DNA of 34,910 bases from a virus (Duplodnaviria > Caudoviricetes). The notes beneath the pieces are model-generated. The model was not told where the DNA came from. It did not search any database and was given only the letters and a program-made list of their open reading frames with translations. The translations under genes were made by a program, and so were the position numbers. Location: IMG/VR virus record IMGVR_UViG_3300029821_000149, positions 1-34,910 of that record. One strand, written 5' to 3'. Below are positions 18,390 to 33,013 of the stretch, piece by piece (position 1 is the first letter of the stretch; each line of letters starts with the position of its first letter).

Positions 18390-18768
18390 AATGCACAAAA
18401 GAGATAGGAACAGGTGCATGAACATTGGCCTCCACGTGCTGGGTATTTTTCCACTCGTCGGGCGCGCGGTTGAAGAGATACACGCACAGGGCGCCCATGT
18501 GGCCCCGCTTGGCTTTCATGTAGAGGACGTCTACGAGTATCTCTATGCGGCTTTTCTTGGCTTCATCGACCTTTGCTTTGAAGTCAGGATCTTCTTTGTA
18601 CCAGGAGTAGAAAGTGTCGTGATGGATCTTGGCGCCCTTGCAGGCGAGGCGCACGCCGGCGCCGTTGCGCAGGCTCTGGATGATGAAGGGTTTGGCGTCG
18701 CGCTTATTGTTCGCGAGCCCTTTGGAGTTTTGCTTGGTGGACTGCTTTTTCTTCTCGTTGTCTTTCAT
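18340..18768 (-). CDS. terS: Terminase small subunit (HTH)
   Basis: 142 aa from ATG 18768; ACKGAKIHHDTFYSWYKEDPDF HTH and YLFNRAPDEW; directly upstream of TerL. Confidence 0.75.
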   Translation of the reverse strand: MKDNEKKKQSTKQNSKGLANNKRDAKPFIIQSLRNGAGVRLACKGAKIHHDTFYSWYKEDPDFKAKVDEAKKSRIEILVDVLYMKAKRGHMGALCVYLFNRAPDEWKNTQHVEANVHAPVPISFVHYDPAKHAKPGDAQPGS

Positions 18769-18790
18769 CCCCAGCCTTTTGACCAGGGCG

Positions 18791-18827
18791 AAAATAAATA
18801 GCCCGGGCCATCCTTGACCCGGGTTAT
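18791..18827 (-). terminator. Terminator-like hairpin at entry of late operon
   Basis: Minus RNA CCCGGGUCA-AGGA-UGGCCCGGG followed by CUAUUUAUUUU. Confidence 0.65.
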
Positions 18828-18836
18828 GATGGTTCA

Positions 18837-18866
18837 AGTATAGCCCATGGGTTTGACTTTTGTCAC
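18837..18866 (-). promoter_or_regulatory. Putative late promoter
   Basis: GTGACA-18 bp-TATACT in an AT-rich intergenic region; dyad TGAC-N4-GTCA overlaps the -35. Confidence 0.55.
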
Positions 18867-18884
18867 GACCTATTTTTGGCAAAT

Positions 18885-19025
18885 TCATTTTGCCCGTCGG
18901 CGCGCATGGTATACTCGCCACTTGTTTTTTAATCCCAGCCGGGCGGCCACCTCCTTTGGCTTCAGGCCGGTAGCGAGCAGCGCGAGGATCTGCGCGTCCA
19001 GGGACACGGTGCGCGGGCGGGTCAT
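18885..19025 (-). CDS. Small HTH protein (46 aa), candidate late regulator
   Basis: QILALLATGLKPKEVAARLGL is GerE/LuxR-like; last early gene; ATGA-coupled. Confidence 0.65.
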   Translation of the reverse strand: MTRPRTVSLDAQILALLATGLKPKEVAARLGLKNKWRVYHARRRAK

Positions 19026-19216
19026 TCTTCCTCCAGCGCATGGAACAGCGCATCGAAGCCGGCGAGCATGGCCGCGGTCTTGGGCTTCTCGGCCAGGTTG
19101 GGGTGCAGCTTGCCGGTCCTGGACGGCTGCACCGGGGCGCGGAAGGCGTGCTTCCACCATATCATCCCGTTGTTGAAGAACATGCGCTCGGGGTCGAAGG
19201 GGAATGGAGCGGTCAT
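19022..19216 (-). CDS. Hypothetical protein
   Basis: 64 aa, coupled on both sides. Confidence 0.55.
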   Translation of the reverse strand: MTAPFPFDPERMFFNNGMIWWKHAFRAPVQPSRTGKLHPNLAEKPKTAAMLAGFDALFHALEEE

Positions 19217-19554
19217 TATTTGCCGGCCTCCTGGATGCGCGTCTCCGTAATGACCGGCTCGAACACCAGGCGCCGCATGTCCTCGAGGTGCGCCTTCGTC
19301 GCCTCGAGCACGCCTTCCACGCGGCTCTGCTCCTTGGGTTTCACGCCGCGCTCCAACAGGGCGTTGAGGATTGCCTCAAGACCAGCGTGCGTGGGGATCA
19401 CCATCGTGAAATCATCTATCATCACGCCCGGCTCATACGTCTTTATCGTCTTGCCGTCAGACTGCAGCACAGAGATGCGGCCGTCCTGCTCATAGAACAA
19501 CACCAGTTTCGCACCACCTAAAAACGCTTCGTCGATTATTCTTGCTTTCCACAT
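19216..19554 (-). CDS. Hypothetical phage protein
   Basis: 112 aa, AGGAGG RBS; ends in GVLEATKAHLEDMRRLVF. Confidence 0.7.
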   Translation of the reverse strand: MWKARIIDEAFLGGAKLVLFYEQDGRISVLQSDGKTIKTYEPGVMIDDFTMVIPTHAGLEAILNALLERGVKPKEQSRVEGVLEATKAHLEDMRRLVFEPVITETRIQEAGK

Positions 19555-19556
19555 GG

Positions 19557-19697
19557 CTATTTCCTCCTGCTGATTTCCTGGTCTATCCAGGCGACCACGA
19601 AGGCCGCCGTTATCTGTGTGTAAGGCCCGACCTCGCGCCGGACGCGCCGGCGAAGACGGCGGAGCACTTTGATCACCGCTTTGTTGCAGGGCTTCAT
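19557..19697 (-). CDS. Small basic hypothetical protein (46 aa)
   Basis: MKPCNKAVIKVLRRLRRR...; ATGA overlap with the upstream gene. Confidence 0.5.
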   Translation of the reverse strand: MKPCNKAVIKVLRRLRRRVRREVGPYTQITAAFVVAWIDQEISRRK

Positions 19698-19972
19698 AAC
19701 GGCAGCCCCGGGACGTTGCGGCCGATCACCGGCTTCTTGCGCGGCACCGGCACGATGGTGTACGACGCGCAGCGCACCGGCATGTCGGCGAAAGCGAGAT
19801 TGTCCTGGCCGTGCGCGCCCGCGCCCACGATGTTCATGCAGTTCGCCGTGAGGTTGCGGCAGGCGTCCAGCGCGGTCCGCGCCGCGCAGCGGGTGCGCCG
19901 GCACCTGGCGCAGTTCTGCTCCTGCCAGTACATAGCCTGCGTGCCGTTGGTGAACGGGATGTAAGTCGTCAT
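19694..19972 (-). CDS. Cys-rich hypothetical protein
   Basis: 92 aa; PFTNGTQAMYWQEQNCARC. Confidence 0.65.
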   Translation of the reverse strand: MTTYIPFTNGTQAMYWQEQNCARCRRTRCAARTALDACRNLTANCMNIVGAGAHGQDNLAFADMPVRCASYTIVPVPRKKPVIGRNVPGLPL

Positions 19973-20169
19973 AGCTTCCTCCTGCAGCTCCGGGGCTGCT
20001 CGATGCGCAGCTCGAAGCTCAGCCGCGGCGGCTTGGCTGGGTTACGCTCGTCAAAATGCCCGAGGCGGCAGCGGCGCGTACCGACGCCGTCCCCGGGCAC
20101 GAAGCAACTGCACCACAGGCCGCAATACGGCGGCGGGTTGAACTTGTCGTTGACGCGGGGGCGGCTCAT
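19969..20169 (-). CDS. Cys-rich hypothetical protein
   Basis: 66 aa, coupled; CGLWCSC. Confidence 0.5.
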   Translation of the reverse strand: MSRPRVNDKFNPPPYCGLWCSCFVPGDGVGTRRCRLGHFDERNPAKPPRLSFELRIEQPRSCRRKL

Positions 20170-20372
20170 GGCTTCACCTCTTTGCCGAACGCCAGGCAGG
20201 CCGCGCAGCGCAAGGGGCCGCCACCAAGGCAGCGCTGCAGCTTCTTGTCGAACAGGACGCAGTGCGCCGGCCGCTCCGTGTAGTAGGAGCAGCTCTCGCT
20301 GCAGTACTTGTCCTCGGTCTTGATGGTGATGAAGACGCCGGAGCCGTAGATGCTGATGCGCTCGGAGGTCAT
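20166..20372 (-). CDS. Cys-rich hypothetical protein (68 aa)
   Basis: Start 20372 (ATGA overlap); YCSESCSY...HCVLF...RCAAC. Confidence 0.6.
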   Translation of the reverse strand: MTSERISIYGSGVFITIKTEDKYCSESCSYYTERPAHCVLFDKKLQRCLGGGPLRCAACLAFGKEVKP

Positions 20373-20851
20373 GCCCGCCTCCCCGGCGCCGGCTGCGCGA
20401 TCGGGCAGATGTCGTCCGGCCGCCCCAGGCACTCCCCGCGCAGGGCCATCTGGCACGGCGTGCAGAAGGTCCGCGAGAGCCACTCCCGGCACGTGACCTT
20501 CCTGGGCCGCAGCTTCGCCCAGATCCAGCGCGCCGGCCAGGCCAGCCACAGCAGCAGGTAGAGCGCCGCGTACCAGACCAGGAGCACGGTGTTGGTCAGG
20601 AAGCGCCAGGTGGCGCGGCCCACCTGCTTGGCGCGGGAGATCAGCAGCGCGCGCTTGAGCTGCGCGGCGATGTCGGCGTAGAGCGTGGGCAGGCAGACCT
20701 CATGCACCAGGGCGTCGAGGTTGCGCACCTTCACCTTGCGCATCGGCGAGGTGAACCAGGCGTCCTTGCTGATGCGCCAGGTCGCGGGCTTGTTGCAGAC
20801 GGGGCACAGGGCCAGGCCGTCCGGGCAGGTTTCGTTCTGTATCTTGTTCAT
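20369..20851 (-). CDS. Hypothetical membrane protein with Cys motifs
   Basis: 160 aa; CPVC, one TM segment, Cys-rich C-terminus; AAGGAG RBS. Confidence 0.6.
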   Translation of the reverse strand: MNKIQNETCPDGLALCPVCNKPATWRISKDAWFTSPMRKVKVRNLDALVHEVCLPTLYADIAAQLKRALLISRAKQVGRATWRFLTNTVLLVWYAALYLLLWLAWPARWIWAKLRPRKVTCREWLSRTFCTPCQMALRGECLGRPDDICPIAQPAPGRRA

Positions 20852-21486
20852 GGGGTCTCCTTGAGGGTTTCGTTATCGGTCAGCGCCTGGGCTATAGCCG
20901 CGGCGCGGTCGAGCTTGTAGGTGCCTTTGCCGGCCGGGATGATGGCGAAGCCGGCCGCGGCGAGCACGTGGATGTCGCGCTCCACGCTGCGCATGCTCAC
21001 GCCGTTCTGCTTGGCCAGGTCCGGCACGTGAACGGGCGCGCCGAGCATTATGCGCACGATGTTGAGCAGGCGCTGGAGGCGCAGCTCCTTGCGCGGGCTG
21101 GCTGCTTTCGGCGGGAAGTAGACGGTCTTGCCCTGGGGTGGCTTCTTCGGCTCGGCCGGCGGCATGGGCAGGGCCGGCAGCTCCGGCTTGACCGGCACCA
21201 CGTCCTTGAGGTAGCGGAAGATGGTCGCCGCGCACTTGTCGCAGGACGCCGCTATGGAGGCCAGCGACTCCCCGGCCCGGCGCCGCTCTATCAGGGGCGC
21301 GAGCTGCTCGGGGGTGAAGGCCGGCTTCCGGCCGCGCTTACCAGGGATCCGCGGCGGCTTCGGCTCCCGCGGGATCCTGGCCAGGGTCACCTCGCGGCCG
21401 CACTGGCTGCAGACGCACAGCCGGCCGGCGATATACGTATGGTCGGTCCTCTCGTCTTCGGTCGGGCAGTACAGGGAGATCTTCAT
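20848..21486 (-). CDS. Zn-ribbon plus double-HTH transcription regulator
   Basis: N-terminal CPTE...CSQC; central HTH GESLASIA...ATIFRYL; C-terminal winged HTH LAKQNGVSMRSVERDIHVL. Confidence 0.7.
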   Translation of the reverse strand: MKISLYCPTEDERTDHTYIAGRLCVCSQCGREVTLARIPREPKPPRIPGKRGRKPAFTPEQLAPLIERRRAGESLASIAASCDKCAATIFRYLKDVVPVKPELPALPMPPAEPKKPPQGKTVYFPPKAASPRKELRLQRLLNIVRIMLGAPVHVPDLAKQNGVSMRSVERDIHVLAAAGFAIIPAGKGTYKLDRAAAIAQALTDNETLKETP

Positions 21487-21962
21487 AACGCGGGCACCTC
21501 CTCTTCTTCGGCCTGCTCGAACAGGGTGGGGCGGGCAGCCTGCTCATCGGCCGGCGTACCGAAGCGCGGCCGGAAGAACTCGGCCAGGCTGGGGGGGATG
21601 GGCTCCGCGTCCAGCTCGCCGCTGTACAGCTCGTGCAGCTTGAAGGCGGGCACGCCGCGGCAGGCCTTGATCAGCTTGTAAACGTTGGCCGGCTCGATGT
21701 CCAGGGTGGACGCTATGCGCCAGAGCTTCACCACCGGCGTCTTCACGCAGGCGGGGTTGCCGCACCTGATCACCCGGCCGATAGGGGTGTACGGCCCTTC
21801 CTCGGTGCGCAGGTAGATGACCTCCCCGATCATAACCGTGCCCAGCTCCTGCTCACCGTAAGGCGCCGGCGCCGCGATGCACGTGTCGCAGCGCAGGTAC
21901 CGGGTGTCTATCGGCTTGGCCGCGGCGTTGCTGTTGTTGTTGCTATATGCGCTCTTGCTCAT
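21483..21962 (-). CDS. Hypothetical protein
   Basis: 159 aa after the replication initiator; CDTC and CGNPAC. Confidence 0.6.
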   Translation of the reverse strand: MSKSAYSNNNSNAAAKPIDTRYLRCDTCIAAPAPYGEQELGTVMIGEVIYLRTEEGPYTPIGRVIRCGNPACVKTPVVKLWRIASTLDIEPANVYKLIKACRGVPAFKLHELYSGELDAEPIPPSLAEFFRPRFGTPADEQAARPTLFEQAEEEEVPAL

Positions 21963-22875
21963 ACTCTCTCCTTTCGCTGTCCCATGCCGTGAAGTCTTTC
22001 TTCAGCCAGCGCAGGTCCCAGCTGTCCTTGCCCTGCTTGGCGTACCAGTCCGCGTGGTCCTTGATAGCCCGGAGGGCCAAGGTTACGTCGCCGCCTGCTA
22101 AGGCCAGTAGGTCCCGGGCAGGGTACGAAACGTCAACGCTGGCCACGTAGACCGCCTTGGCTGCCGCGTTAGCGAAGCGGAGCTTCTTGGCCGCGCAGTA
22201 GGCATCGATTACGGCCAGCACGTCCTGGTCTTTTATAATGGCGTCGGAACTGTCCACGGCCCCCGCTTTCCCTGCAGCCGCGCCGTCAGGCGCGGAACAC
22301 GGCGAAGCCGGCCCGGCGGGGGGGGCATCAGGTTTATCCTTATCCGAAACGATACTGTTATCATTATCGTTATGGAAGACCCTCCCCCCTCTTCTCTCCT
22401 CTACTTTACTTTGTCCATTTCCGGCGGTAGAAATGGGGTTATTGCCGCTTTTAATTCCCGAAAACGGGGGTTTTGGGGGATTATTGTCGTCATATTGACG
22501 ACATAAATCCGGGCGGGCAGGTGTGGGGCTGGCCCTGCGCCGCCAGACCTCGGAGAGGTTGTCGACCAGGTCCTGAGACCAGACCACGCGGGACCGGGCC
22601 CAGAGCTCGCTGTCGATGTTGTTGAGCTTGGCCATGACGTCCAGCATGGCGATGGCGTCCTGCTCGTTGACCCGGGTCTTGGCCAGGAAGACCTCGCGGG
22701 TGATGTCGTTCTTGAAGTCCAGGTACATGTCGTCCGACTCGCAGAGGGTCTCGTAGAGCTTCCACATGAAGGCATAGCCGGGGATCCCCCATCGTGTCTC
22801 CAGGATGAAGAGCGTCTTGCCGGGCTTGACCACGTGCGGGAAGTAGTCCACGGTGCGCTTGATGGTGCGGGCCAT
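21943..22875 (-). CDS. Replication initiator / replisome organiser (DUF4373-like N-terminus)
   Basis: MAR...VDYFPH...GIPGYAFMWKLYETL N-terminus; central low-complexity linker with QSKVEERR. Confidence 0.75.
   Translation of the reverse strand: MARTIKRTVDYFPHVVKPGKTLFILETRWGIPGYAFMWKLYETLCESDDMYLDFKNDITREVFLAKTRVNEQDAIAMLDVMAKLNNIDSELWARSRVVWSQDLVDNLSEVWRRRASPTPARPDLCRQYDDNNPPKPPFSGIKSGNNPISTAGNGQSKVEERRGGRVFHNDNDNSIVSDKDKPDAPPAGPASPCSAPDGAAAGKAGAVDSSDAIIKDQDVLAVIDAYCAAKKLRFANAAAKAVYVASVDVSYPARDLLALAGGDVTLALRAIKDHADWYAKQGKDSWDLRWLKKDFTAWDSERREYEQERI
22330..22510. other. Candidate origin of replication inside initiator gene
   Basis: AT-richer segment with TTATC repeats, a pyrimidine tract, TTATTGYCG repeats and the palindrome TGTCGTCA-TAT-TGACGACA (22485-22503). 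Confidence 0.5.
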
Positions 22876-23177
22876 TACCGCACCGCCTTGAGCGTTTTAA
22901 CGGCCCCTACGGCGCGGTAGTTGGCGGCCTCCCAGCCATCCAGCGCCGCGGTGAACTCGGCCGGGGTGGCCAGGCTGCCGCGGCACGCCACCCAGGCGCT
23001 GTCCAGCTTGGCGCGGGCGGCCTCCAGGGCTTCGTTTAAGGCCCTGTAGTCCTTGGTGAGGTCCTTGGGGCTCAAGCTGCGTCCCCAGGCCTTCCTGATG
23101 CGGCTGAAGGTGGCGTTGAAGGCCTCCTGGCGCGCGAGCTCAGCTGCTTCGGGTGTTGTCGTTGTGTTCATGTTCAT
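22875..23177 (-). CDS. Hypothetical protein (paralogue of 25970..26320)
   Basis: About 100 aa; W-x2-CR-x3-AT-x-AEF-x3-L-x2-W motif. Confidence 0.7.
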   Translation of the reverse strand: MNMNTTTTPEAAELARQEAFNATFSRIRKAWGRSLSPKDLTKDYRALNEALEAARAKLDSAWVACRGSLATPAEFTAALDGWEAANYRAVGAVKTLKAVR

Positions 23178-23305
23178 CTCCCTGTGAAGTAGGCCAGCGC
23201 CCCGAAAGCCAGGGCGGCGGCGGTAAAGATAGCGGTCCAGCCGTAGCGGGTAAAGAACGCGGCGCCGGGCCTGCGGTCGGTGGTGATGCGGTCGGGGTGG
23301 TTCAT
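23174..23305 (-). CDS. Small single-TM protein (43 aa, not in ORF track)
   Basis: MNHPDRITTDRRPGAAFFTRYGWTAIFTAAALAFGALAYFTGR; GGAGG RBS; ATGA overlaps at both ends. Confidence 0.6.
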   Translation of the reverse strand: MNHPDRITTDRRPGAAFFTRYGWTAIFTAAALAFGALAYFTGR

Positions 23306-24093
23306 ATAGCCTCCGTGGATTTAATCCACATAACTTCTGTCCTTGGCTTCGCGCAACAAGCGAACGAAGGGCGCTCCACCCGCGTCCACCCGCGTCCACC
23401 CGCGTACAACTCCTCGTAGAGAGGGCTTGGATACCCCGAAATAATTACTGTGCCTTTTAATGTCTTAAGCACATTTGATAGTGCCACGTGATCAAGGTCT
23501 GATAGTTCGTGGATATACCCATGCCGTTCTTGCCTGGTCTCCGCCAGATATGGTGGGTCCACGTAATGCAGCGCGTCCGGGGCGTCATACTTCTCCAGCA
23601 CGCCAATCGCCTCCATGCTTTCAATCACAACTCCCTGCAGGCGCTCAATAATGCGCTGTAACGCCTCGGGGTAGCTGGCCCAGTCATGCGACGGCGTGCT
23701 GCCGGCGCGATTCACGCTGCCCCGGAACCCGCTGGCCCGATATAAGCTGTCGGAGCCGTGCCCCATATTCGCTTTAACGATGGTCCGGCGGGCTTGCTCC
23801 ACGGCGTCCACCGTGTGGTCGTACGCCTCCAGCATCTCCTGCCGAGAGAACGGCGTCAGCTGGATCTTCCGCAACAGTTCCGGCCCCTGGTCCCGCACTA
23901 CCTTTAACAAGTTCACCAGCTCGCCGTTAAGATCGTTGTATATCTCGGCGTAAGCCCGTTCCTTCCGCAACAAGCAGCTGGCCGCGCCCCCGTAAACTTC
24001 GGTGTAAACCCGGTGTTTAGGGAAATGAGAAATAACCCATCCAGATATGCGGGATTTGCCTCCGTAGTACCTGATAAGTGGACGGTACTTCAT
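23302..24093 (-). CDS. DNA adenine methyltransferase (D12/Dam-like), orphan
   Basis: RYYGGKS, EVYGGAAS, YNDLN, YVDPPY. Confidence 0.92.
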   Translation of the reverse strand: MKYRPLIRYYGGKSRISGWVISHFPKHRVYTEVYGGAASCLLRKERAYAEIYNDLNGELVNLLKVVRDQGPELLRKIQLTPFSRQEMLEAYDHTVDAVEQARRTIVKANMGHGSDSLYRASGFRGSVNRAGSTPSHDWASYPEALQRIIERLQGVVIESMEAIGVLEKYDAPDALHYVDPPYLAETRQERHGYIHELSDLDHVALSNVLKTLKGTVIISGYPSPLYEELYAGGRGWTRVERPSFACCAKPRTEVMWIKSTEAI

Positions 24094-24449
24094 GCTCCCT
24101 CCTGGAACTGCCGGTGCACCAGCACCGCGCAGGTGTTGCCCTTGGCGTTAGCCCGGCGCAGGCCGGTCTCCACCAGGATGCAGCCGAACTCGGCGGTCTT
24201 AAGCTGCGAGACGCGCGGCCGGACGGAGAAGGCGTCCACGTTGTGGCCGAGCATCTGCAGGCGGGCGGCCATCTCGTCGGCGATGAAGCCGTTGGGGTAG
24301 AGCAGGGCTTCCTGCGCCACCAGGCGCCGCAGCGCGGTCTCGTCCACCCTCTCTAACGCCGCGGCGCTGCACTCGGCCGCCACCGCCCCGGAAGCCTGTG
24401 CCTCCGGGGTCGGGGTGCCGTTGTCGTTGAACATGGCGGGCTGCATCAT
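24090..24449 (-). CDS. Winged-helix DNA-binding protein (119 aa)
   Basis: Start 24449 (ATGA overlap); ADEMAARL...SVRPRVSQL...TGLRRANAKG. Confidence 0.65.
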   Translation of the reverse strand: MMQPAMFNDNGTPTPEAQASGAVAAECSAAALERVDETALRRLVAQEALLYPNGFIADEMAARLQMLGHNVDAFSVRPRVSQLKTAEFGCILVETGLRRANAKGNTCAVLVHRQFQEGA

Positions 24450-25960
24450 TTCGCCGCCTTCGCGGGCTTCTTGCCCTTCTGCGCATCCCAGGCGGCCTCG
24501 GCGTCCTTCTTGGCCTTGGCCATGACGGCCTTGGCATTGATGCCGCAGATGGAGAAGCTTTTCGGGTCCGGTTCTTGGGTGGAGAGAGACTTGCGGAAGT
24601 CGAGCGCCATCATGAATACCAGGGCGAACAGATCCTGCTGGCTCAGGTCTTCGTACTGGTACTCGGTGTATGTCCAATCGTTCTCCTTGTCCTTCTTCTC
24701 CTTGGTGCTCACCGGGATGAGCTGCATGGGGATCTTGGTGTCGTAGTGGCCGGGCTCGAGGGCCTTGGCGATTACGGCCAGGTGGGAGTTGTCGGTGTTG
24801 CCCAGGCATGCGGTCCTGGCGGCGTTGAAGAGCGCCTTGTAGGTCTCCATGCGGATGAACTTCTGCTTCGGGGTGATGCGGTTCGTGTCCTCGGGCGCCC
24901 CGGAGACGTCCGTCTTGGGCTTCCGCTCCACTACGACCCAGAGGTTGTACTCGGAGTCCAGAAGGTACTTGGCCCCGGCTTTCTGCGCGGCCTTGGTTTT
25001 CTTGTCATCCGCTTTCCCAAGGGTGACCAGATTCTTGTCGCCATTCTGGAACAGGTGCTTCATCTGGCAGTCGGCGTAAACGTAGCGCTCGGTCATGCCG
25101 AGGAAGTCGTCCCCGTGGACGTTTTTCATCGCCTGGATCTTAATCTCTTTGTAGTGCTCCATCTTGGCTTCCAGGCAGGGGCGGTTGAGGCAGTTGCCCT
25201 TTTCGGCCCCGTCAAAGAGCCGGCCCTGGTTGCCGCTGTTGTAGACGCAGGCGGTGCAGGCTTCCTTGCCGGCGTAGGCCACATTCTTGGGAAAGGGGTG
25301 ACCGTCCAGCTTGCGGCCGAACTGGTTATCGATGGTGTCCTTGAGATTGGTGGCGGTCGTTTCGTCTCCGTCGCCGCTATCCTCCACCACCTCCTCTATC
25401 TTCTCGGCCGGGACGCGCAGCAGTTGGTGGCCGTGCGCGGCGGTCCATTCCCCGGACTCTATGCGCTCCAGCACCTTCTCGGGCAGCTCAAGCAGCCGCA
25501 CGGCGCGGTACACGTAACTGACGTTCTTGCCGACGCGGTCCGCGAGCTCCTGGGCCTGCTCCACGCTGTGGCCCTTCTGGTCCAGCAGCACCTTGAAGGC
25601 CCGGGCCTCCTCGATGGGGCTGAGGTCCTTGCGGTGGAGGTTCTCGAGGGCCTGGACCTCTAGGGCTTGGTCCTCGGTCAGCTCCAGCATGCGGTAGGGA
25701 ATCCGCTCGACGCCGGCCAGCATGGCGGCGCGGTAGCGGCGCTCGCCCGCGACCAGAATATATCCCTCGCGCAGGATTACCGGCTGCAGCACGCCCACCT
25801 TAGCGATGTTCTCGGCCAGTTCCTGCAGGGCCTTCTCGTTAAACGTCTTGCGGAAGTTCGATATCACCGCGATCTTGTCGCAGTCCACGAGCCCTGCCTC
25901 TATCTCCTTGTAACCCTCGCCGGCGACTACCTCCGGCGTTTTCTTGGTTTTAGTTTTCAT
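24446..25960 (-). CDS. ParB/Spo0J-family protein with extended C-terminus
   Basis: LQELAENI-x2-VGVLQP, LVAGERRYRA, ENLHRKDLSPIEEA, HTH, then CTAC...CLNRPC. Confidence 0.9.
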   Translation of the reverse strand: MKTKTKKTPEVVAGEGYKEIEAGLVDCDKIAVISNFRKTFNEKALQELAENIAKVGVLQPVILREGYILVAGERRYRAAMLAGVERIPYRMLELTEDQALEVQALENLHRKDLSPIEEARAFKVLLDQKGHSVEQAQELADRVGKNVSYVYRAVRLLELPEKVLERIESGEWTAAHGHQLLRVPAEKIEEVVEDSGDGDETTATNLKDTIDNQFGRKLDGHPFPKNVAYAGKEACTACVYNSGNQGRLFDGAEKGNCLNRPCLEAKMEHYKEIKIQAMKNVHGDDFLGMTERYVYADCQMKHLFQNGDKNLVTLGKADDKKTKAAQKAGAKYLLDSEYNLWVVVERKPKTDVSGAPEDTNRITPKQKFIRMETYKALFNAARTACLGNTDNSHLAVIAKALEPGHYDTKIPMQLIPVSTKEKKDKENDWTYTEYQYEDLSQQDLFALVFMMALDFRKSLSTQEPDPKSFSICGINAKAVMAKAKKDAEAAWDAQKGKKPAKAAK

Positions 25961-25969
25961 CGTCTCTCC

Positions 25970-26320
25970 TTATCTGTTTCTGAATTTGCACTCTCTGCGC
26001 TTTGCTGTGATCTGCTTCGTCCGCTTGTCCATCGCGTCCTTCTCGCCGGGCTTGCCGAGATCCAGCACCTCGGCCGCGTGCAGCCGCTCCACCCGCCAGC
26101 TGGCCAGATAGTGGCTAAACTCCGCGTGCGTAGCGCGGCCGGCTCTGCAGTCCTGCCATACCAGGACCAGCAGCTCTTGGGTGAAGCGGAGGTCGCACTG
26201 TATGCACTGGTCGGTCCGGTTGTCCGGCGCCGGGAACTTGTAGGCGGCGTAGCCCGGCCAGACCTCCATCACGTCATGGGCGGCCCTGATGAACTCCTTG
26301 CGGCGCTGCTCTTCGGTCAT
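25970..26320 (-). CDS. Hypothetical protein (paralogue of 22875..23177)
   Basis: 116 aa; WQDCRAGRATHAEFSHYLASW. Confidence 0.65.
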   Translation of the reverse strand: MTEEQRRKEFIRAAHDVMEVWPGYAAYKFPAPDNRTDQCIQCDLRFTQELLVLVWQDCRAGRATHAEFSHYLASWRVERLHAAEVLDLGKPGEKDAMDKRTKQITAKRRECKFRNR

Positions 26321-26910
26321 GCGGCCTCCAGCTGCTTGACCATATCCCGGCCCCGCGCCGCCTCGAAGGTAGCGCAGGCGTCGGCGATATGTTCCTTGTC
26401 TTTTATGAGTTGCTCCGAGATGGCCGGGTACTTCGCCTCCATGGCCGCCATGACGAACCGCTTCAACTCGTTGGTGTCCGCGCCCGGGTGGTCTTTCTTG
26501 ACCCAGCCGGCCGCCTCACGGCTTTCGTTCGGGGTGATCCATTCCGCCGGGCACCGGAGCGCCACGTGGACCACCGCTATGATCCCGGTGGCCAGGCCCA
26601 TGCACTTCTGCGCCGCGGCGCTCTGCGCACCGCCGTTGGGTATCTCGCAGGCCAGGGCCTGGCACTGGTTCTCCAGGAAGTAGTTCAGGATCTCGGTCGC
26701 CATGAACTCGCTGCGGCGAACGTCGTCTACGGCCACGTAGGAGAGCTGGCGCTTCACGAGCTTATTGCGCTTATTGCGCACGCAAACCGTGTGCCCCTGT
26801 TCCGTGTGTATGCACTTGGAATCGAAGAGCTGCCACCCTTCCGGGGTATGCTCAAAAATAGCCATACCCGTTGACCGGAAGCCGACGTCCGCCGCGAGGA
26901 GTTTAATCAT
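26317..26910 (-). CDS. RuvC-like Holliday junction resolvase
   Basis: LLAADVGFRSTG, LACEIP and EHIADA supply the acidic catalytic residues; start 26910 or 26922. Confidence 0.8.
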   Translation of the reverse strand: MIKLLAADVGFRSTGMAIFEHTPEGWQLFDSKCIHTEQGHTVCVRNKRNKLVKRQLSYVAVDDVRRSEFMATEILNYFLENQCQALACEIPNGGAQSAAAQKCMGLATGIIAVVHVALRCPAEWITPNESREAAGWVKKDHPGADTNELKRFVMAAMEAKYPAISEQLIKDKEHIADACATFEAARGRDMVKQLEAA

Positions 26911-27247
26911 TGACGCTGGCATCCTGGAACTTCAGTTTCTCCGCGGCCTCGATGATGTTCACGCGCCGCTTGCAGTTGCGCTCCGTGTCGAAGTAGACGA
27001 TGCTGGTCTTCTGGGCTTTGTCCATCAGCTCCAGCAGCTTCTCGGCCGCCTTCTTGACGTTGTCCTTGGCGCGCGCTTCCTCCACCTTCTTGCCGCTCAG
27101 GTAGTCCGCCGCGTCCTGGAGATCCTTCGGGCAGGTCTCGCGGACCGTGCCCTTGCCGTCCACCGTCTGCTGCGTGTACTTCTCGACCTTGCCGGGCAGG
27201 TCCAGGGTGCCCTGCTTGCCGCCTTTAGTGCTTGCTGATTTTGTCAT
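26903..27247 (-). CDS. Hypothetical protein
   Basis: 114 aa, GGAGG RBS, Lys/Glu-rich. Confidence 0.7.
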   Translation of the reverse strand: MTKSASTKGGKQGTLDLPGKVEKYTQQTVDGKGTVRETCPKDLQDAADYLSGKKVEEARAKDNVKKAAEKLLELMDKAQKTSIVYFDTERNCKRRVNIIEAAEKLKFQDASVND

Positions 27248-27446
27248 TGTTCCTCCGTATGTCTTCTATGATGTCCAGGGCCAGGCGGTTGGCGGTCGCG
27301 TAGATGTCGCGCAGCGCCGCTATCCGGCCCGAGAATTTGCTGGGCTCACCGGCGCGAAGTGCCTCGCGCTCGATGAGGATGACCACTTTGTTGGAGTGGC
27401 TGGTGCTCTCTATGCGGTGAGTCTCGACGTGTTTGGTATTAGCCAC
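27225..27446 (-). CDS. Hypothetical protein
   Basis: 73 aa, GTG start, overlaps both neighbours. Confidence 0.5.
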   Translation of the reverse strand: MANTKHVETHRIESTSHSNKVVILIEREALRAGEPSKFSGRIAALRDIYATANRLALDIIEDIRRNNDKISKH

Positions 27447-28713
27447 GGCTCTCCACCTCCACGTTCTCCAGGTCCGCCACCTTGGTGATGAAGTACTGGA
27501 AGTCGTCCGCGCCGGCCTGCTCCAGGAACGCCTTCTGCGTGTCAGTGTCGAGGCTCTCGAAGCCGTCCAGGCAAATGGCCTTGACCTCGTAGCCCGCGTT
27601 GAGGTTGCGGGTCACGGCCACGGCCAGGCGGGCCTTCTCGCTGGTGCTGAGGTTGACGATGGGCACGCCGTTGAGCGTGAAGGAACCTTCCGCGAAGGCG
27701 AGGCCCTCCACCGGCATGCTGACGTCCGCCATCAGCTGGGCCGGCGCTTCCTTCTGCAGGGTCTTCACGGCCTTGTCCAGGGTCTCGGCCTTCTTCTTGA
27801 CCTCGCGGTACTCGCCGCGGAGATCTTCCAGCCGGCCGAGGTCGCGGGAGGCGGCCTGGGAAGCCTGCAGCTCGGCCATGCGGGCCTGCAGCGGCGCGAT
27901 GTCCGGGACGTCCATGGCCACCAGCTCGTTCTCCAGGCGCCTGGCTTCCTCGCGCTTGGCGTTCATCTTGCCGGTGAGCTCCAGGATCTCCTCCTGCATC
28001 TCGGACACGTCCTTGCTGAGCTGGTCCATGCGCCGGCTGGTCTCTTCCATCTTCTGCTGCGCGGCGCGGGCCCCGCTGAGCTGCTCCATCACCTGGCCGA
28101 GCTCGGCCGGATCCACCGGCTTGGCGCCGGCCGGGATCTTGGTCTTGAGGTCCGCCGCGGCGCCCTCGAGCTGCTTCACCCGGGCGTTGGTGCCGGCGCG
28201 CTCCTGGTAGAGCACCTCAATGAGGTCGTCAACGGCCTCGAGGCCGTGCATGTTGACGTACTTCTCGAGGTCGCCCACCAGGCCGTCGGTCCAGCCCTGC
28301 AGCTGCTCCAGCGTGGCCATCACCGGGATGGCCTTGAGCAGGTACTGCGTCTGCTCCTTGGCGCTCATGGCAAAGAACTTCACCGGCTCGAAGGAGAAGT
28401 CGCCGATGATGCCGTCGAGGAAGGTCTGCGGCTTGGGCAGGATCTTCCCGTCCCGCGTCACCGTGACCGAGCCGCCCTTGGCGGTGATGCTGCGCTTGAT
28501 CTCGATGTCGTCGGTGGCAAGGAAGATCTCCGCCTTGCTCTCGCCCACGCGGATCTTGTCCTGGCCGGCGCCCCGGAACGCGGCTTTGATGGCCTCGATG
28601 ATGGAGGTCTTGCCCTTTCCGTTGCGGCCGGCGATGATGTTCATCTTCTTCGGGTCGATGCTGGTTTCCTCGATGCCGATGAAGTTGCGCACTTCAAGTT
28701 TGGTTATCTTCAT
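27439..28713 (-). CDS. SMC/RecN/SbcC-like ABC ATPase
   Basis: KLEVRNF, GRNGKGKTS Walker A, central coiled coil, NLSTSE signature, ICLDGFESLD. Confidence 0.88.
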   Translation of the reverse strand: MKITKLEVRNFIGIEETSIDPKKMNIIAGRNGKGKTSIIEAIKAAFRGAGQDKIRVGESKAEIFLATDDIEIKRSITAKGGSVTVTRDGKILPKPQTFLDGIIGDFSFEPVKFFAMSAKEQTQYLLKAIPVMATLEQLQGWTDGLVGDLEKYVNMHGLEAVDDLIEVLYQERAGTNARVKQLEGAAADLKTKIPAGAKPVDPAELGQVMEQLSGARAAQQKMEETSRRMDQLSKDVSEMQEEILELTGKMNAKREEARRLENELVAMDVPDIAPLQARMAELQASQAASRDLGRLEDLRGEYREVKKKAETLDKAVKTLQKEAPAQLMADVSMPVEGLAFAEGSFTLNGVPIVNLSTSEKARLAVAVTRNLNAGYEVKAICLDGFESLDTDTQKAFLEQAGADDFQYFITKVADLENVEVESRG

Positions 28714-29825
28714 AACTCCACGTCCTCCTTGGCCAGCTTCATGGCCTTGAACTCTTCGGTGACCGAGATGTCGAGCAGGGGCTCCACGTCTTCCTTGAGC
28801 CCGTCGTTCTTCTTGTAGAGCTTCTTGAGCTCGGTGCCGGTGATGGAGAGCCAGGCCAGGGGCTTGATGCCCTTGAGCTCCAGCAGGCTCGCGAAGGCGT
28901 CCATGTCGCGCACCTTGATCTTCTCCTTCTTGCTGTAGCCCCAGCGGCCGCTGGCGGTTTCAACGTCGCCATGGCCCTGCACGTAGCCCTTGAGCGCGTC
29001 CTTCTTAGCCTTCACCTGCGCCTCGAGCACGAACAGATCCTCCGCCACCTGGCGGGCTTCCTCGGGGTTGGTGACCACCAGCAGGTTGGACGGCTTGGCG
29101 GTACATATGCTGGCGTAAGGGCAGTACTGGCAGGCGGTGCCGGGCGTGGCGTTGAACTTCTTCTCCTCGCTGACGCGCGCGCACTTCTCCTCGATCTCGT
29201 CCACCAGCTTCGGCAGGTCCCTGCGCTCGAACTCCTTAACGGCCGTGTGGCCGCTGTTGACGTAGGAGAACTCGGTGTTGACCTTCTGCACCTCCGGCAT
29301 CATCTGCATGGTGCAGGCGGCGTAGATGCGCATCTGGAACGGGTTGCCCTCGCCGTAGCCGGTCTTGTAGTCCCGCACGGTGGCCTGGTCCTCGTCCTTG
29401 TAGAGGCGGTCTATCTTGCCGCGAAAGGCCGCCGTCTTGCCGAAGAACGAGCACTTGTTCCAGTTCTTGTCGAAGGCGATGTCCAGCTCGATGCCGACCA
29501 GGGTGGCGGCGTCCAGGATCTCCTGCTCCACGAACTTGGAGCAGATCTCGCTGTAGCCTTCCAGCAGGTGGCCCGGCAGCGGCCGCTTGAGGTTCTGCAG
29601 CACTTCCTTGGCGATGCGCTCGTAGGAGGCCAGGTCGGTCTCCACCTTGGCCGCCAGGCAGTGCTTGCCGTACGCCTCAAAGAACTCATGCCCGGCCGCG
29701 CCCAGGATGAGCGGATCGGCCGGGGGCTCGGGCACCTTGTCCAGGTGCTTGAGCTTGTACTGCAGGGGGCACTCCTCGAAGGTGTGCAGCCTGCTGTAGG
29801 ACAGGGGGGGATTGGCGAGGATCAT
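28710..29825 (-). CDS. PD-(D/E)XK RecB-family exonuclease with Fe-S Cys motif
   Basis: LSYSRL...ECP, RGKIDRL, DYKTG, QMRIYA, CQYCPYASIC. Confidence 0.88.
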   Translation of the reverse strand: MILANPPLSYSRLHTFEECPLQYKLKHLDKVPEPPADPLILGAAGHEFFEAYGKHCLAAKVETDLASYERIAKEVLQNLKRPLPGHLLEGYSEICSKFVEQEILDAATLVGIELDIAFDKNWNKCSFFGKTAAFRGKIDRLYKDEDQATVRDYKTGYGEGNPFQMRIYAACTMQMMPEVQKVNTEFSYVNSGHTAVKEFERRDLPKLVDEIEEKCARVSEEKKFNATPGTACQYCPYASICTAKPSNLLVVTNPEEARQVAEDLFVLEAQVKAKKDALKGYVQGHGDVETASGRWGYSKKEKIKVRDMDAFASLLELKGIKPLAWLSITGTELKKLYKKNDGLKEDVEPLLDISVTEEFKAMKLAKEDVEL

Positions 29826-29826
29826 A

Positions 29827-31059
29827 TTACTTGGCCCCCTTGAGGATGGTGAGCAGCTTGGCCTTGTCGGGGTAGCTGCGCATCATCGCGTCTATCTTCA
29901 CCTGCGACCACTTGAGCCTGGCGAACTCGGCCTGCAGTTGCGGGATGAGGTTGACCGGCGGCGCGGGCGGGGTGGCGGGCTTGGCGGCGGCAGGGGCCGG
30001 CGCAGCGGGCTTCGCCGCGGGGGCGGGCGCCGGGGCAGGCTTCGCGGCAGGGACGCCCCTGTCGGGCAGGGTGCCCAGGTACTTGATGAACTCGGCGGTG
30101 GTGCCCATGGAGGCTTTCAGCGCCAGGCCGGCTTCGTGGGACATGCCCTTCTCCGCCAGCATCAGTATCTCGTGCTGGCTGAGCTTCACCTGCTCCTGCT
30201 GCTCAGGCTCCATCAGCTCGGCTTCGGCTTCCTGCACCGGCTCCGGCTTCTCCGCGGGGGCGGCGCCGGCGGCGTCCTGGCCGATGAGCGGCACGGTTTC
30301 CTCGGGCATGAGGTCCGTGGGGATCTCGTCCGGACTGGGGCCTTCCACCTGGTACGCCAGCTGGCTGAGCCGCTGCTGGCCGAGCGCGATGAGCTGCTTG
30401 AACTCGCCGCGCCATTCCACGGTGAGGTGGTGGATGATGCTCTGCTTGCCTTCCACCATGCACTTCTTGGGCACCACTTTCAGGATCAGCGGGATCATGG
30501 CGATACGGCCGCCGGTCACGGAGCGGATCATGTCGATGTCGCTGTTGAGGCTGACGATGCCGTTGAAGCTGCCGGTGTCTATCTGCCAGACGCCCAGGAT
30601 GCCGACCTTGGGGATGAGGAACTGCAGGGTGCCGACGCGGCGGCAGGCCGTGGGCAGCCCGGTCTTCTTGTCCTTGGCGTACTCGCACTCCTCGGGGCCC
30701 AGGCAGTGGATCTCCTGCAGCTCGCCGGTCTGCATGTCCAGGCGGTTGGCGGTGATGCCGTCGCCCTTGCAGATAAGCTTGCCGCCGGTGCTCTGGGTGC
30801 GGACGTAGGACTTGTACCAGCAATCCCAGAAGATGTTCACGGCATCGACCGGGAACATGATCTCCAGTTCTTTGGGGTTCTCGCCGTAGACCTTCTTGAA
30901 GGTCTCCGCGGCGATGGCCGGGGTGGACTCGTCAGCCTTGACGACGAAGTAGTCCACCGCCTTGGGGTAAGGGTTGCCCTTCTGCGACATGGCTTTCACC
31001 CCGAGGTGTATCTTGCCGACTCGACGAAGGCGGCGTATGTCCGACAGCTCTTTTATCAT
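29827..31059 (-). CDS. Gp3-like (recombination directionality factor-like) protein
   Basis: RVGKIHLG...YPKAVDYF, LICKGDG, LQFLIP...GVWQIDTGSFN; Pro/Ala-rich linker near the C-terminus. Confidence 0.7.
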   Translation of the reverse strand: MIKELSDIRRLRRVGKIHLGVKAMSQKGNPYPKAVDYFVVKADESTPAIAAETFKKVYGENPKELEIMFPVDAVNIFWDCWYKSYVRTQSTGGKLICKGDGITANRLDMQTGELQEIHCLGPEECEYAKDKKTGLPTACRRVGTLQFLIPKVGILGVWQIDTGSFNGIVSLNSDIDMIRSVTGGRIAMIPLILKVVPKKCMVEGKQSIIHHLTVEWRGEFKQLIALGQQRLSQLAYQVEGPSPDEIPTDLMPEETVPLIGQDAAGAAPAEKPEPVQEAEAELMEPEQQEQVKLSQHEILMLAEKGMSHEAGLALKASMGTTAEFIKYLGTLPDRGVPAAKPAPAPAPAAKPAAPAPAAAKPATPPAPPVNLIPQLQAEFARLKWSQVKIDAMMRSYPDKAKLLTILKGAK

Positions 31060-31418
31060 TGTGCTTGCTCCTTATGGGTTTCATTTTTTACGTCTAAATC
31101 GGGCAGGCCGTGGCGGGGGTAGTCACCCGCGGGCCCGCCTTTTTCTTTTTCTAGCCCTCTTTCACTTCGGGTTGAGGGCGCATAGTCACCTCCGAAGTGC
31201 TGATCCTGCCTGCTCGCCCGGGAAGTTTCTATCAGGATTTCTATCCCCGGACTAACGACGCTAGAATTGCCGCCGCAGGCCAGCGGCTCTTTTGAAATAG
31301 GCGCGGGCGGGTTGTAAGGTTGGAACCGCTCGGCCCGGCTTTCGGCCAGGTCGGAGCAGTCCAGGGAAGAATCGCGCCCGCCCCAGATGCGCTCTGCCAG
31401 GAAGTCGTTGAAGCTCAT
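31056..31418 (-). CDS. Hypothetical 120-aa ORF overlapping structured elements
   Basis: ATGA overlaps at both ends, but atypical codon usage and no recognisable domain. Confidence 0.4.
   Translation of the reverse strand: MSFNDFLAERIWGGRDSSLDCSDLAESRAERFQPYNPPAPISKEPLACGGNSSVVSPGIEILIETSRASRQDQHFGGDYAPSTRSERGLEKEKGGPAGDYPRHGLPDLDVKNETHKEQAQ
31101..31255. other. Structured element: tandem hairpins with repeated TAGTCACC
   Basis: Hairpin 31102-31139 next to a T-tract (31140-31150); CACTTCGG/CCGAAGTG stem (31163-31199) crossing GCCCTC/GAGGGC; TTTCTATC direct repeat. Confidence 0.55.
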
Positions 31419-31666
31419 AAGGTTGCCGCGTGATGAAGGACGCGGCGAATCCAAGCCGGCGTCAATATGTAAGCGGTGCTCGCGTAGTCCGCCCGGGCCT
31501 CGGCCTCCTGGTCGAAGGTCTCCAGCCGGGTGATCCTGCCCCACTGGCGGTCTATCACCATGTACTCCGCGCACTCCGTGGAGACCAGCCTCCGGTCGCC
31601 GCCCGGCAGCTGGCGGGTGTCGAGCACCTGCATCGGATTCCTCGCTGACCTAATCATGCTTTCCAT
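31415..31666 (-). CDS. Hypothetical protein
   Basis: 83 aa, GAGGTGGAG RBS. Confidence 0.6.
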   Translation of the reverse strand: MESMIRSARNPMQVLDTRQLPGGDRRLVSTECAEYMVIDRQWGRITRLETFDQEAEARADYASTAYILTPAWIRRVLHHAATL

Positions 31667-31675
31667 AACTCCACC

Positions 31676-31897
31676 TCACCTATGTCCCAGGTAGCGCTTG
31701 TTGATCTCGCCGCCCGAGCCCTGCTTGTAACCGAGCGCTGCAAAGTCCTCAAGGCGGAAACGCTTCACCCGGCCGAACCGCATGTAGCTCACCTGCCCGC
31801 TGTCTGCCCACTTGAGCACCGTCTGCCAGCCGTACTCGGGGGAAAGCTTGAGCGCGGCGGCCACTTCCTTAGCGGTTAAAAATTCTGTCTGGCTCAT
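31676..31897 (-). CDS. Excisionase-like HTH protein
   Basis: FLTAKEVAAALKL...TVLKWADSGQV...RFGRVKRFRLED. Confidence 0.8.
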   Translation of the reverse strand: MSQTEFLTAKEVAAALKLSPEYGWQTVLKWADSGQVSYMRFGRVKRFRLEDFAALGYKQGSGGEINKRYLGHR

Positions 31898-32148
31898 ATG
31901 CTCGATGCCTCCGGTACACCCTCACCCTCGAAATCCTCCGGTTCGAACCTGATGCCCAGGTACTTCATGATCCTCACGATGTCGGCCGCCAGGGGCTGGT
32001 GCTTGCCCGCCAGCAGGTACTCCATTCTGTCGACCGAGATGTGAACCTTTTCGGCCATCTCTCGTATAGTCCACCCCTTCATACGCCGGAAGAGGTCCAG
32101 CTTGCCTGCAAACTTTAGGGTCATAATGTCCGTTCTGCCTTGCTCCAT
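31894..32148 (-). CDS. Cro-like XRE HTH regulator
   Basis: RRMKGWTIREMAEKVHIS...LLAGKHQP; first early gene, divergent from the repressor. Confidence 0.8.
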   Translation of the reverse strand: MEQGRTDIMTLKFAGKLDLFRRMKGWTIREMAEKVHISVDRMEYLLAGKHQPLAADIVRIMKYLGIRFEPEDFEGEGVPEASSI

Positions 32149-32164
32149 CCTTAATTCTCCCCGG

Positions 32165-32193
32165 TTGACAACCCCGCAAATTCGCTATAATCT
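32165..32193 (+). promoter_or_regulatory. Putative lysogenic (repressor) promoter
   Basis: TTGACA at 32165-32170, with TATAAT at a 15-bp spacer or TAATCT at a 17-bp spacer. Confidence 0.6.
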
Positions 32194-32207
32194 ATAGTTG
32201 CGGCAGT

Positions 32208-32263
32208 AAAAAATAGGGCCAGCTCTCGCATAGTCCGGGTCAAGGCGTTTTGCGAAAGCTGGC
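32208..32263 (-). terminator. Attenuator-like hairpin in early leader
   Basis: 13-bp stem GCCAGCUUUCGCA/UGCGAGAGCUGGC (one G-U, valid only on the minus RNA), 20-nt loop, then CCUAUUUUUU. Confidence 0.6.
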
Positions 32264-32342
32264 GGGCTCTTGTAAGCCCTCTGCGCTTTTGGGGCGCATA
32301 GTTGTTGAATCTGTCTTTGACCCGGACATGTATTTCTGTTGA

Positions 32343-32361
32343 TAGTGTATCAGATACACTA
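32343..32361. promoter_or_regulatory. Operator candidate (perfect 19-bp dyad)
   Basis: TAGTGTATC-A-GATACACTA overlapping the early promoter, about 20 bp upstream of the repressor start. Confidence 0.75.
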
Positions 32362-32372
32362 ACACCTGTCAA
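32344..32372 (-). promoter_or_regulatory. Putative early lytic promoter
   Basis: TTGACA-17 bp-TACACT on the minus strand. Confidence 0.7.
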
Positions 32373-32380
32373 GGGTCCAT

Positions 32381-33013
32381 ATGCCTATACGGCCTAAAAG
32401 AGCGGAGATACGTCGGAGGAGGAACCTCGCCGGCTTGTCTTTGCGTGAGTTTTCCAAGGTCGCAAAGATTGGCTTTGTCACAATATCGAACATCGAAACC
32501 GGCAAAGCCGGGGCCTCTCCTGAGATGCTGGATAAGATCGCCGCGGCGCTGAATTGTTCAGCGGCCGACATCTCTGAAGAGTTGCCGTTCGAGCTGCCGA
32601 GAGATCCTTCCCAAGAAAGGGGGGTGCCGGTAGTCGGGGTTGTAAACGCCGGCAATTTCAGTTTCTCCTACGACATGCCGCCCGAGACGCATCTGCCTCT
32701 CCGGCTGGATCTGCCAGGCAGCCGGCGCGCCGTGGCGCTGCGGGTGAGCGGGGATTGCATGGTGAACCCGAAGGACCCCAAGGGCAGCCTGTATGACGGG
32801 GACTACGTGATAATCGTGGAGCCGAATAATAAGGAATGTCCCAACGGCAAGATCGCCGTCGTCCGGCTGGGGGGCGATGAGTACACGCTCAAGCGCGTCT
32901 TTAAGACCAAGGACGGCTACGAGCTGAAGCCGGACAACGACAAGTATAAGTCCATTTTCATCAAGGGCGACATCGACGTGGTGGGGATAAAGATGGCGAA
33001 GTGGTCTCCATAG
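32381..33013 (+). CDS. CI/LexA-like repressor (XRE HTH plus S24 peptidase domain)
   Basis: N-terminal HTH (ISNIETGK), VPVVGVVNAG cleavage loop, VSGDCM, TLKR. Confidence 0.92.
   Translation: MPIRPKRAEIRRRRNLAGLSLREFSKVAKIGFVTISNIETGKAGASPEMLDKIAAALNCSAADISEELPFELPRDPSQERGVPVVGVVNAGNFSFSYDMPPETHLPLRLDLPGSRRAVALRVSGDCMVNPKDPKGSLYDGDYVIIVEPNNKECPNGKIAVVRLGGDEYTLKRVFKTKDGYELKPDNDKYKSIFIKGDIDVVGIKMAKWSP

Follow-up and report, generated by a model that had tools for sequence, protein, structure and literature searches.

A 20-nt loop in the predicted early leader RNA of a temperate prophage is complementary to the terminator-like hairpin ahead of the phage's late genes, and the two change together between related phages. 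The prophage belongs to an uncultured family and makes up the whole of the 34,910-base provirus record IMGVR_UViG_3300029821_000149, which was analysed at full length (the window) and in which both leaders are read from the minus strand. Based on sequence comparison and predicted folds, we put at roughly 60% the probability that the early leader RNA, once terminated, pairs with the late leader as it is transcribed, keeps the late terminator from forming and exposes the ribosome site of the first late gene. The narrower claim, that the loop and the late leader form a functional RNA-RNA pairing, is considered likely from the same comparisons. A first-pass annotation of this DNA had reported that the loop (32250-32231) is perfectly complementary to three sites, namely 32327-32317 (site (a), 11 nt), 18822-18812 (site (b), 11 nt) and 31254-31246 (site (c), 9 nt), and had proposed that the terminated leader acts in trans on the late terminator as a small RNA (sRNA). 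All three strings are exact at these positions, and the trans proposal was strengthened for sites (a) and (b) and given up for site (c), as described below.

The early leader RNA (32208..32337, minus strand) is predicted to be about 125-130 nt long, with its start placed from the -10 box. It follows a sigma70-type promoter (TTGACA-17-TACACT with an extended TG; 32344..32372, minus strand), which was called by promoter scan and lies at the same position in three relatives. The leader then contains, in order along the minus strand, two small hairpins (P1, 32282..32298, and P2, 32264..32279), a terminator-like stem of 13 bp (32218..32263) enclosing the 20-nt specificity loop (32231..32250), and a U-tract (32208..32215), and the first gene 3' of it is a cro-like helix-turn-helix (HTH) gene (31894..32148, minus strand; Pfam and alignment). 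The shuffle control proposed in the first-pass annotation gave z = -5.06 for the leader fold, with 0/200 shuffles equalling it. The loop can pair with site (a) (32317..32327, minus strand) at the leader's 5' end, forming a helix that we call P0. In prefix folding, P0 held all of the probability until 12-16 nt beyond the loop, after which the terminator stem prevailed, and the stem formed earlier when the 5' site was blocked. As P0 and the terminator stem have no bases in common, their exclusion would be topological and kinetic. In this model, P0 is likely the early antiterminator.

Conservation of the leader was assessed in relatives found by cro alignment, which gave five loci, of which L020 (starts within cro) and L021 (a false match) were left out of the leader count. 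The leader recurs before cro in all three relatives with upstream DNA (L019, L022 of genome G002 and L023 of genome G001). The 5' site and loop are GTCCGGGTCAA and TTGACCCGGAC in the window and in G002, GTCCCGGTCAA and TTGACCGGGAC in L019, and GCTCTTGGCA and TGCCAAGAGC in G001. P0 is retained at 10 of 10 pairs in all four leaders (40/40 alignment cells), with 5 of the 10 pairs changed on both sides; slid controls paired at 26-46%, and none of 500 shuffles attained the observed pairing, a control on four related sequences that is not a probability. The other helices varied less. Two of the five P1 pairs are changed on both sides, G-U variants in P2 and in the terminator stem preserve pairing on the cro-sense strand, and the seven basal terminator pairs are invariant in 4/4 leaders and so uninformative on their own. 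Further variation was seen in one of two database proteins that read through the leader by mis-annotation (P0008), in which the 5' site reads LLPK and the loop NLWQEH, against LLAK and NLCQEH in G001; these residues hint at another loop type. Among metagenome contigs at depth below 5, those of run X4 differ in the promoter and operator, with no change in 32209-32329 among the differences listed, and one X5 contig carries an extra base in the 5' site and has its inner 70 nt replaced.

The late leader lies behind a sigma70-type promoter (GTGACA-18-TATACT; 18837..18866, minus strand; promoter scan and alignment), and promoter-like boxes lie 5' of the late leader, at pattern level, in all three records compared (the window, G002 and G001; the L019 record is without a late region). 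The promoter is followed by the terminator-like hairpin H2 (18802..18823, minus strand), whose 5' arm and loop are site (b), and by a U-rich tract (18791..18801, minus strand) in which ATTTATTT is invariant in 3/3. The H2 stem is worth -18 to -22 kcal/mol and has an interrupted U-tract in each record. A further hairpin, H3 (18769..18788, minus strand), which looks like a decayed duplicate of H2, covers the ribosome site and start codon of the first late gene in 3/3 records; in the window, this gene encodes the terminase small subunit (terS; 18340..18768, minus strand; Pfam). The H3 5' arm can pair with the H2 3' arm once the latter is freed (-13.5 to -15.4 kcal/mol across the three records). 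Given this hairpin, the output of the switch may in our model be translational as well as transcriptional. As a separate observation, the window's terS frame stays open for 95 codons further upstream, through the late promoter (19053-18340, minus strand), which was not seen in relatives and is probably chance.

We found that the late site follows the loop between phages. In G002, a 12-nt complement of the loop spans the 5' arm and loop of a hairpin that stands 3' of a promoter and has a U-rich tail; next come a 391-aa gene, by eye ParB/methylase-like, and the terminase genes. In G001, which has a different loop, a 14-nt complement of its own loop lies directly 3' of the homologous late promoter, ahead of terS. 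In each record, no perfect sense-strand complement of the loop is longer than those at the 5' site and the late site (11/11 nt in the window, 11/12 in G002 and 10/14 in G001), and the late leader was the best RNAduplex tile for its own loop in all three (of 1,744, 1,884 and 1,948 tiles, respectively). When loops were shuffled 20,000 times, 31 attained 11 nt in the window's 40-nt late leader, 9 attained the match in G002 and 2 that in G001. Pairing was also type-specific: the G001 loop reached -27.7 kcal/mol with the late leader of G001 itself, against -9.4 and -11.9 with the other two. The covariation test across relatives that the first-pass annotation had suggested thus came out in favour of sites (a) and (b), which were kept in G002 and changed jointly with the loop in G001, and against site (c).

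These same data bear on whether only the pairing of the 5' end with the loop is functional, in cis, as an attenuator, with the late match arising by chance or left over from a duplication. The window genome does contain many matches of 9-11 nt, and a distant relative (G512, described below) has the cis pairing with no late match detected. However, the 14-nt match to the changed loop in G001 stands at the homologous late position, as the top tile of 1,948 and attained by 2/20,000 shuffles, and we consider a purely cis role highly improbable.

The number of matches alone proves little, and the case for the late site rests on position and covariation. A 20-mer from the window's own sense strand recurs elsewhere, on average, 5.0 times over at least 9 nt and 0.5 times over at least 11 nt, and two further 9-10-nt copies of the motif lie at 34325-34334 and 27586. 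With a background this high, site (c) (31246..31254, minus strand; complementarity only) and the 9-mers in coding DNA are at chance level, which for the latter bears out the caution already given in the first-pass annotation. Site (c), together with the surrounding element at 31.1-31.25 kb, was also considered as a third target or a paralog of the leader and rejected, since it is at chance level and has no counterpart in G001 or G002; it is not conserved and is probably outside the system. The element has features of its own: antisense transcription would likely terminate at a strong hairpin followed by a T-run (31100-31151, plus strand), another terminator-like site on the plus strand lies at 31272-31287, and 31165-31186 repeats 32281-32302 at hairpin P1 (22 nt, 77%), a repeat not found in relatives. 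A 9-nt match to the window-type loop that resembles site (c) occurs in L020 (1208-1216), in a long intergenic stretch (1000-1417) among early genes. Within the early operon itself, 32053-32072 in the cro coding sequence is identical at 18/20 nt to 32217-32236 in the terminator 3' arm, and the terminator 5' arm is thus complementary to the cro mRNA.

The first-pass annotation had raised the alternative that the motif is a DNA site for a phage protein, which would then sit at both promoters and inside the leader. The window copies do lie about 15-20 bp behind both -10 boxes, and the phage encodes several HTH proteins. Two operators help to judge this. The palindrome over the early promoter (32340..32364) is a likely operator of the CI repressor (HTH and S24 peptidase by Pfam; gene at 32381..33013, plus strand). 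Each of the four phages has a different palindrome here, and their CI HTHs differ; this fits CI repression, under which the leader RNA would be absent in lysogens. A second, near-invariant palindrome (32185..32197) matches a near-invariant Cro recognition segment and is a likely Cro operator. However, the window and G002 share the motif despite different CI helices and operators, and G001 has another motif despite a nearly unchanged Cro recognition segment. Its orientation is always that of loop against target on one strand, its copies lie within covarying RNA helices, and the distance of the late copy from the inferred start varies among phages, from about 8 to 27 nt. Considering these points, a protein-binding DNA site is very unlikely, and the alternative is weaker than when first raised.

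How the RNA would act was examined with predicted binding energies. Opening the loop costs 2.8-5.3 kcal/mol, and net loop binding is -16 to -18 kcal/mol at the nascent late site against -3 to -7 once the hairpin has closed, values that agree best with action during transcription. When the late site was blocked, intermediate prefixes paired the freed H2 3' arm with the H3 5' arm in 3/3 records. The complementarity is symmetric, and the signal could in principle run the other way, with a short terminated late-leader RNA, comparable to the lambda PR'-tR' RNA or StxS, binding the early loop, blocking P0 and strengthening early termination, as an aid to immunity or a sponge. The late promoter looks constitutive, and terminated late leaders can become sRNAs (PMC7547250; this and the other papers are cited from excerpts of their text). 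In the finished late RNA, however, the site is buried, with an opening cost of 13-16 kcal/mol and a net binding of -3 to -7, and the early loop is exposed; in addition, H3 over the ribosome site and a relay hairpin in G001 are built as a receiver. We therefore regard this reversed direction as unlikely.

The relay hairpin, H1, is inserted in G001 between the promoter and H2, and it is H1 that has the cognate site. With the H1 site blocked, the H1 3' arm paired with the H2 5' arm in prefixes 52-64 (-9.6 to -11.9) and later with the H3 5' arm. The H2 5' arm of G001 matches the loop type of L019 (11 nt). No second copy of the leader RNA was found in G001, G002 or the window, so the ancestral H2 of G001 is without a detected cognate RNA of its own. 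From this one record and its modelled folds, H1 may be an adapter acquired at the time of the loop change. In the window, the late hairpin likewise matches the L019 loop (18819-18809, 11 nt), and this match, judged by sequence, suggests mosaic exchange of early and late modules between loop types. A further difference in G001 is that cro and the excisionase-like gene are separated by an inserted gene, HNH-like by eye (L023, 4350-4850).

Taken together, the reading in which the early leader RNA opens the late leader would proceed as follows. In the lysogen, CI would repress the early promoter, and the leader RNA would appear only after induction or infection. The 5' end of the nascent early transcript would capture the loop first, as P0, hindering closure of the terminator stem, and the early genes would be read. 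Transcripts that do terminate would accumulate as an sRNA of about 125 nt, whose loop would bind the H2 5' arm before H2 closes, so that no terminator forms; the freed H2 3' arm would then sequester the H3 5' arm, and the ribosome site of the first late gene would open. In G001, the added H1 would receive the sRNA and relay the signal. Less certain is a step in which the loop would also bind the 5' ends of new early transcripts, block P0 and raise early termination, which would result in a self-reinforcing early-off, late-on switch. A more far-reaching proposal is that the leader is a natural RNA replacement for the antiterminator protein Q, with a single loop as clock that would serve as cis antiterminator partner, shut off early transcription in trans and open the late operon by a strand-displacement cascade, and that would be re-keyed by changing the loop and 5' site and inserting an adapter hairpin. 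We hold this fuller proposal only tentatively, and consider it rather doubtful as a whole.

A test of the design outside the close relatives came from G512, a distant relative (cro 58%) with the same order of int, cI, promoter, leader and cro. Its leader, which precedes the cro homolog (L253 1213-1400, G512:C104) and has no Rfam match, is unrelated in sequence and has the same design, in that a 10-nt 5' site pairs with a segment inside a 12-bp stem (attained by 6/3,000 shuffles), without a U-tract. The G512 genome is fragmented, with its early and terS-like contigs unlinked, and the terS-like contig may be from another prophage. Elsewhere in G512, a switch-like late leader lies before a terS-like gene (L254 1216-1335, G512:C235), with a 5' arm that has two alternative partners and then a terminator.

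Several results weigh against opening of the late leader by the early RNA. As the window and G002 have the same loop type, the late covariation comes down to a single independent switch, that of G001. The terminator pattern scan called H2 in only 1/3 records. At equilibrium with the site blocked, the minimum lies below the structure with an open ribosome site in all three (G001 -39.7 vs -31.1, window -18.4 vs -14.0 and G002 -22.3 vs -13.0 kcal/mol); the OFF hairpins thus re-form even with the site blocked, and the model requires kinetics. In the finished RNA, the 5' end could lock the loop as a pseudoknot. The only terS-like locus of G512 lacks the match, its longest complement being 8 nt, and the G512 site occurs 13 times across that genome, never in what looks like a late leader, so that late pairing holds in 3/4 records examined. 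A protein activator is possible as the late control, since G001 encodes an early HTH protein similar to late activators (phrog_836, E 2e-7; Q-like phrog_79, E 0.002) and the window a protein weakly related to it. On the supporting side, a search for the Q family gave no Pfam match among the 47 window proteins and none in PHROGs for the 21 window proteins compared. Finally, the late site is predicted to pair just as well with an antisense copy of the 5' end as with the loop (-26.1/-27.4/-28.6 vs -24.4/-27.8/-27.7).

This last result raises the question of whether the partner of the late site is instead an RNA of the opposite strand, since a cI transcript from a convergent promoter would carry the complement of the 5' site and could pair with the late leader. 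Besides the matching duplex energies, a conserved promoter-like element (TTGAC-N-15-TATAAT, or 17 to TAATCT; 32165..32197, plus strand; role inferred), which overlaps the likely Cro operator, points through the leader at cI in 4/4 phages. Its perfect hexamers stand 15 nt apart in all four, in a face-to-face arrangement 3' of the early terminator; the 15-nt spacing is unusual and the promoter scan did not call the element. However, where the late and 5' sites differ, it is the sense loop that the late site fits by Watson-Crick pairs: a late-site G faces a loop C in 3/3 records, with further such pairs in G001 and G002. The G-U variants likewise preserve the hairpins only on the cro-sense strand, and an opening of the late leader would make little sense for a transcript made in the lysogen. 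An opposite-strand partner is therefore improbable, and the sense-strand leader RNA is preferred. If active, the convergent element would give an antisense copy that could neutralise the leader RNA in lysogens.

Other searches for relatives added little. In viral contigs, an inverted-motif pattern gave 17 stretches and no leaders, and single-protein locus searches with cro and a Gp3-like protein gave none. The terminator-stem pattern was examined at 120 of about 410 loci, 6 of them with a T-rich tail and none leader-like. The palindrome pattern gave 8 loci, of which only G001 was real, the late-promoter pattern 69 loci with no terS match, and excisionase alignment 4 loci, of which only G001 was close and the other 3 were without a leader. 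Among kin of G002, a cro profile (1/61) and RNA model searches (1/151 and 1/80) gave nothing new, the stem pattern gave 16/401 with only G002 leader-like, and a second cro profile search (2/393) yielded G512. The RNA model (R1), built on an RNAalifold consensus that took the P0 fold, missed the G512 leader. No match was found in annotated phages.

The gene content is that of a temperate phage. By Pfam scan, the 47 window proteins include an integrase (33774, plus strand), CI with HTH and S24 peptidase, and the products of cro-like and excisionase-like genes, followed by recombination and replication genes and then terS, terL, portal, capsid and tail genes on the minus strand; no tRNA genes were found. 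The runs that contain the window DNA are groundwater or aquatic metagenomes; no RNA run is listed among them, which says nothing for or against expression, and one run labelled RNA-Seq, which is probably DNA, does not cover the leader. G002 is the closest relative, and two host proteins adjoining its prophage cluster at 90% with proteins named for Elusimicrobiota/Elusimicrobiales, from which we infer a similar (Elusimicrobiales-type) host for the window.

For comparison with known RNAs, Rfam has C4 and isrK models. An Rfam scan of the window gave three sub-threshold, unrelated matches, none in the leader; L022 and L023 gave none at the gathering score, and the G512 loci gave one unrelated weak match. 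The CI RNA of satellite phage P4 is similar in that an early leader encodes it and carries, further upstream and at the 5' end, a site complementary to it, and in that it controls termination by acting in trans on nascent transcripts, but it terminates transcription and maintains lysogeny, and its seqC lies downstream of CI (PMC4825925). Here, a seqA-like upstream target is present in the same leader (P0, 4/4, covarying) and a seqC-like downstream target in the early transcript was not found, as site (c) is 1 kb off, 9 nt long and at chance level; the second conserved target is instead 13.4 kb off, in the late leader, and is predicted to open, and the phage also has a CI protein. The P1/P7 C4 antisense RNA shares short loop-target pairing and a variable loop that sets phage specificity, but has two loops (a' and b'), is cut by RNase P and occludes ribosome sites (PMC5320573), whereas here one loop in a terminator hairpin is the predicted activator and pairing is conserved with the 5' end and a terminator arm rather than with a ribosome site. 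The active P4 CI and P1 C4 RNAs are both released by RNase P (PMC5499578, PMC5320573).

Among activators, IsrK of the Salmonella prophage Gifsy-1 is likewise a short terminated prophage leader RNA that activates in trans, refolds its target and frees a ribosome site, but it acts on its own read-through transcript and turns on AntQ (PMC4825925); here, action would be direct and on the late leader of another operon. Small transcription-activating RNAs (STARs) bind the 5' stem of an intrinsic terminator in trans and allow read-through (10.1101/022772), a geometry that the window and G002 have directly, with 11 and 12 nt of the H2 5' arm and loop complementary, and G001 indirectly through H1. STARs are engineered, whereas here the activator would be a natural by-product of an attenuator, combined with a ribosome-site hairpin and, in G001, a relay hairpin. 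According to the excerpted text of the 2015 STAR preprint, no natural or synthetic example was known until then (10.1101/022772). T-box riboswitches also give read-through of an intrinsic terminator by a natural trans RNA, but through uncharged tRNA, a ligand that stabilises the antiterminator via a complex fold, and not an antisense sRNA on a terminator arm (PMC7430163). The arrangement of lambda PR'-tR' and StxS, a promoter followed by a short terminator-ended leader before the late genes (PMC7547250), recurs here at pattern level; lambda uses the Q protein (PMC7547250), whereas here no clear Q homolog was found and the terminator arm covaries with an RNA loop. The only antitermination described in the excerpted text of a review on sRNAs and termination is directed against Rho (PMC6582626). 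Full-text literature searches, whose coverage lacks most subscription journals, turned up no case of a late terminator opened by a phage leader RNA. Overall, the leader RNA belongs with neither the CI nor the C4 RNAs, and would work partly like CI RNA (upstream pairing), partly like IsrK (trans activation) and partly like synthetic STARs (late site).

The known phage RNAs of this sort (P4 CI and P1 C4) are repressors, and lambdoid phages use a protein for late antitermination. If our reading is true, the early leader RNA would give the engineered STARs a natural equivalent and represent a new means of timing the lytic cycle, and G001 would show how such a lock is re-keyed in evolution. The system is small, with an RNA of about 125 nt, a target of 40-75 nt and at least two natural types that do not pair with each other. 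Should activation be shown, it would border on a new kind beyond the trans-acting phage leader RNAs.

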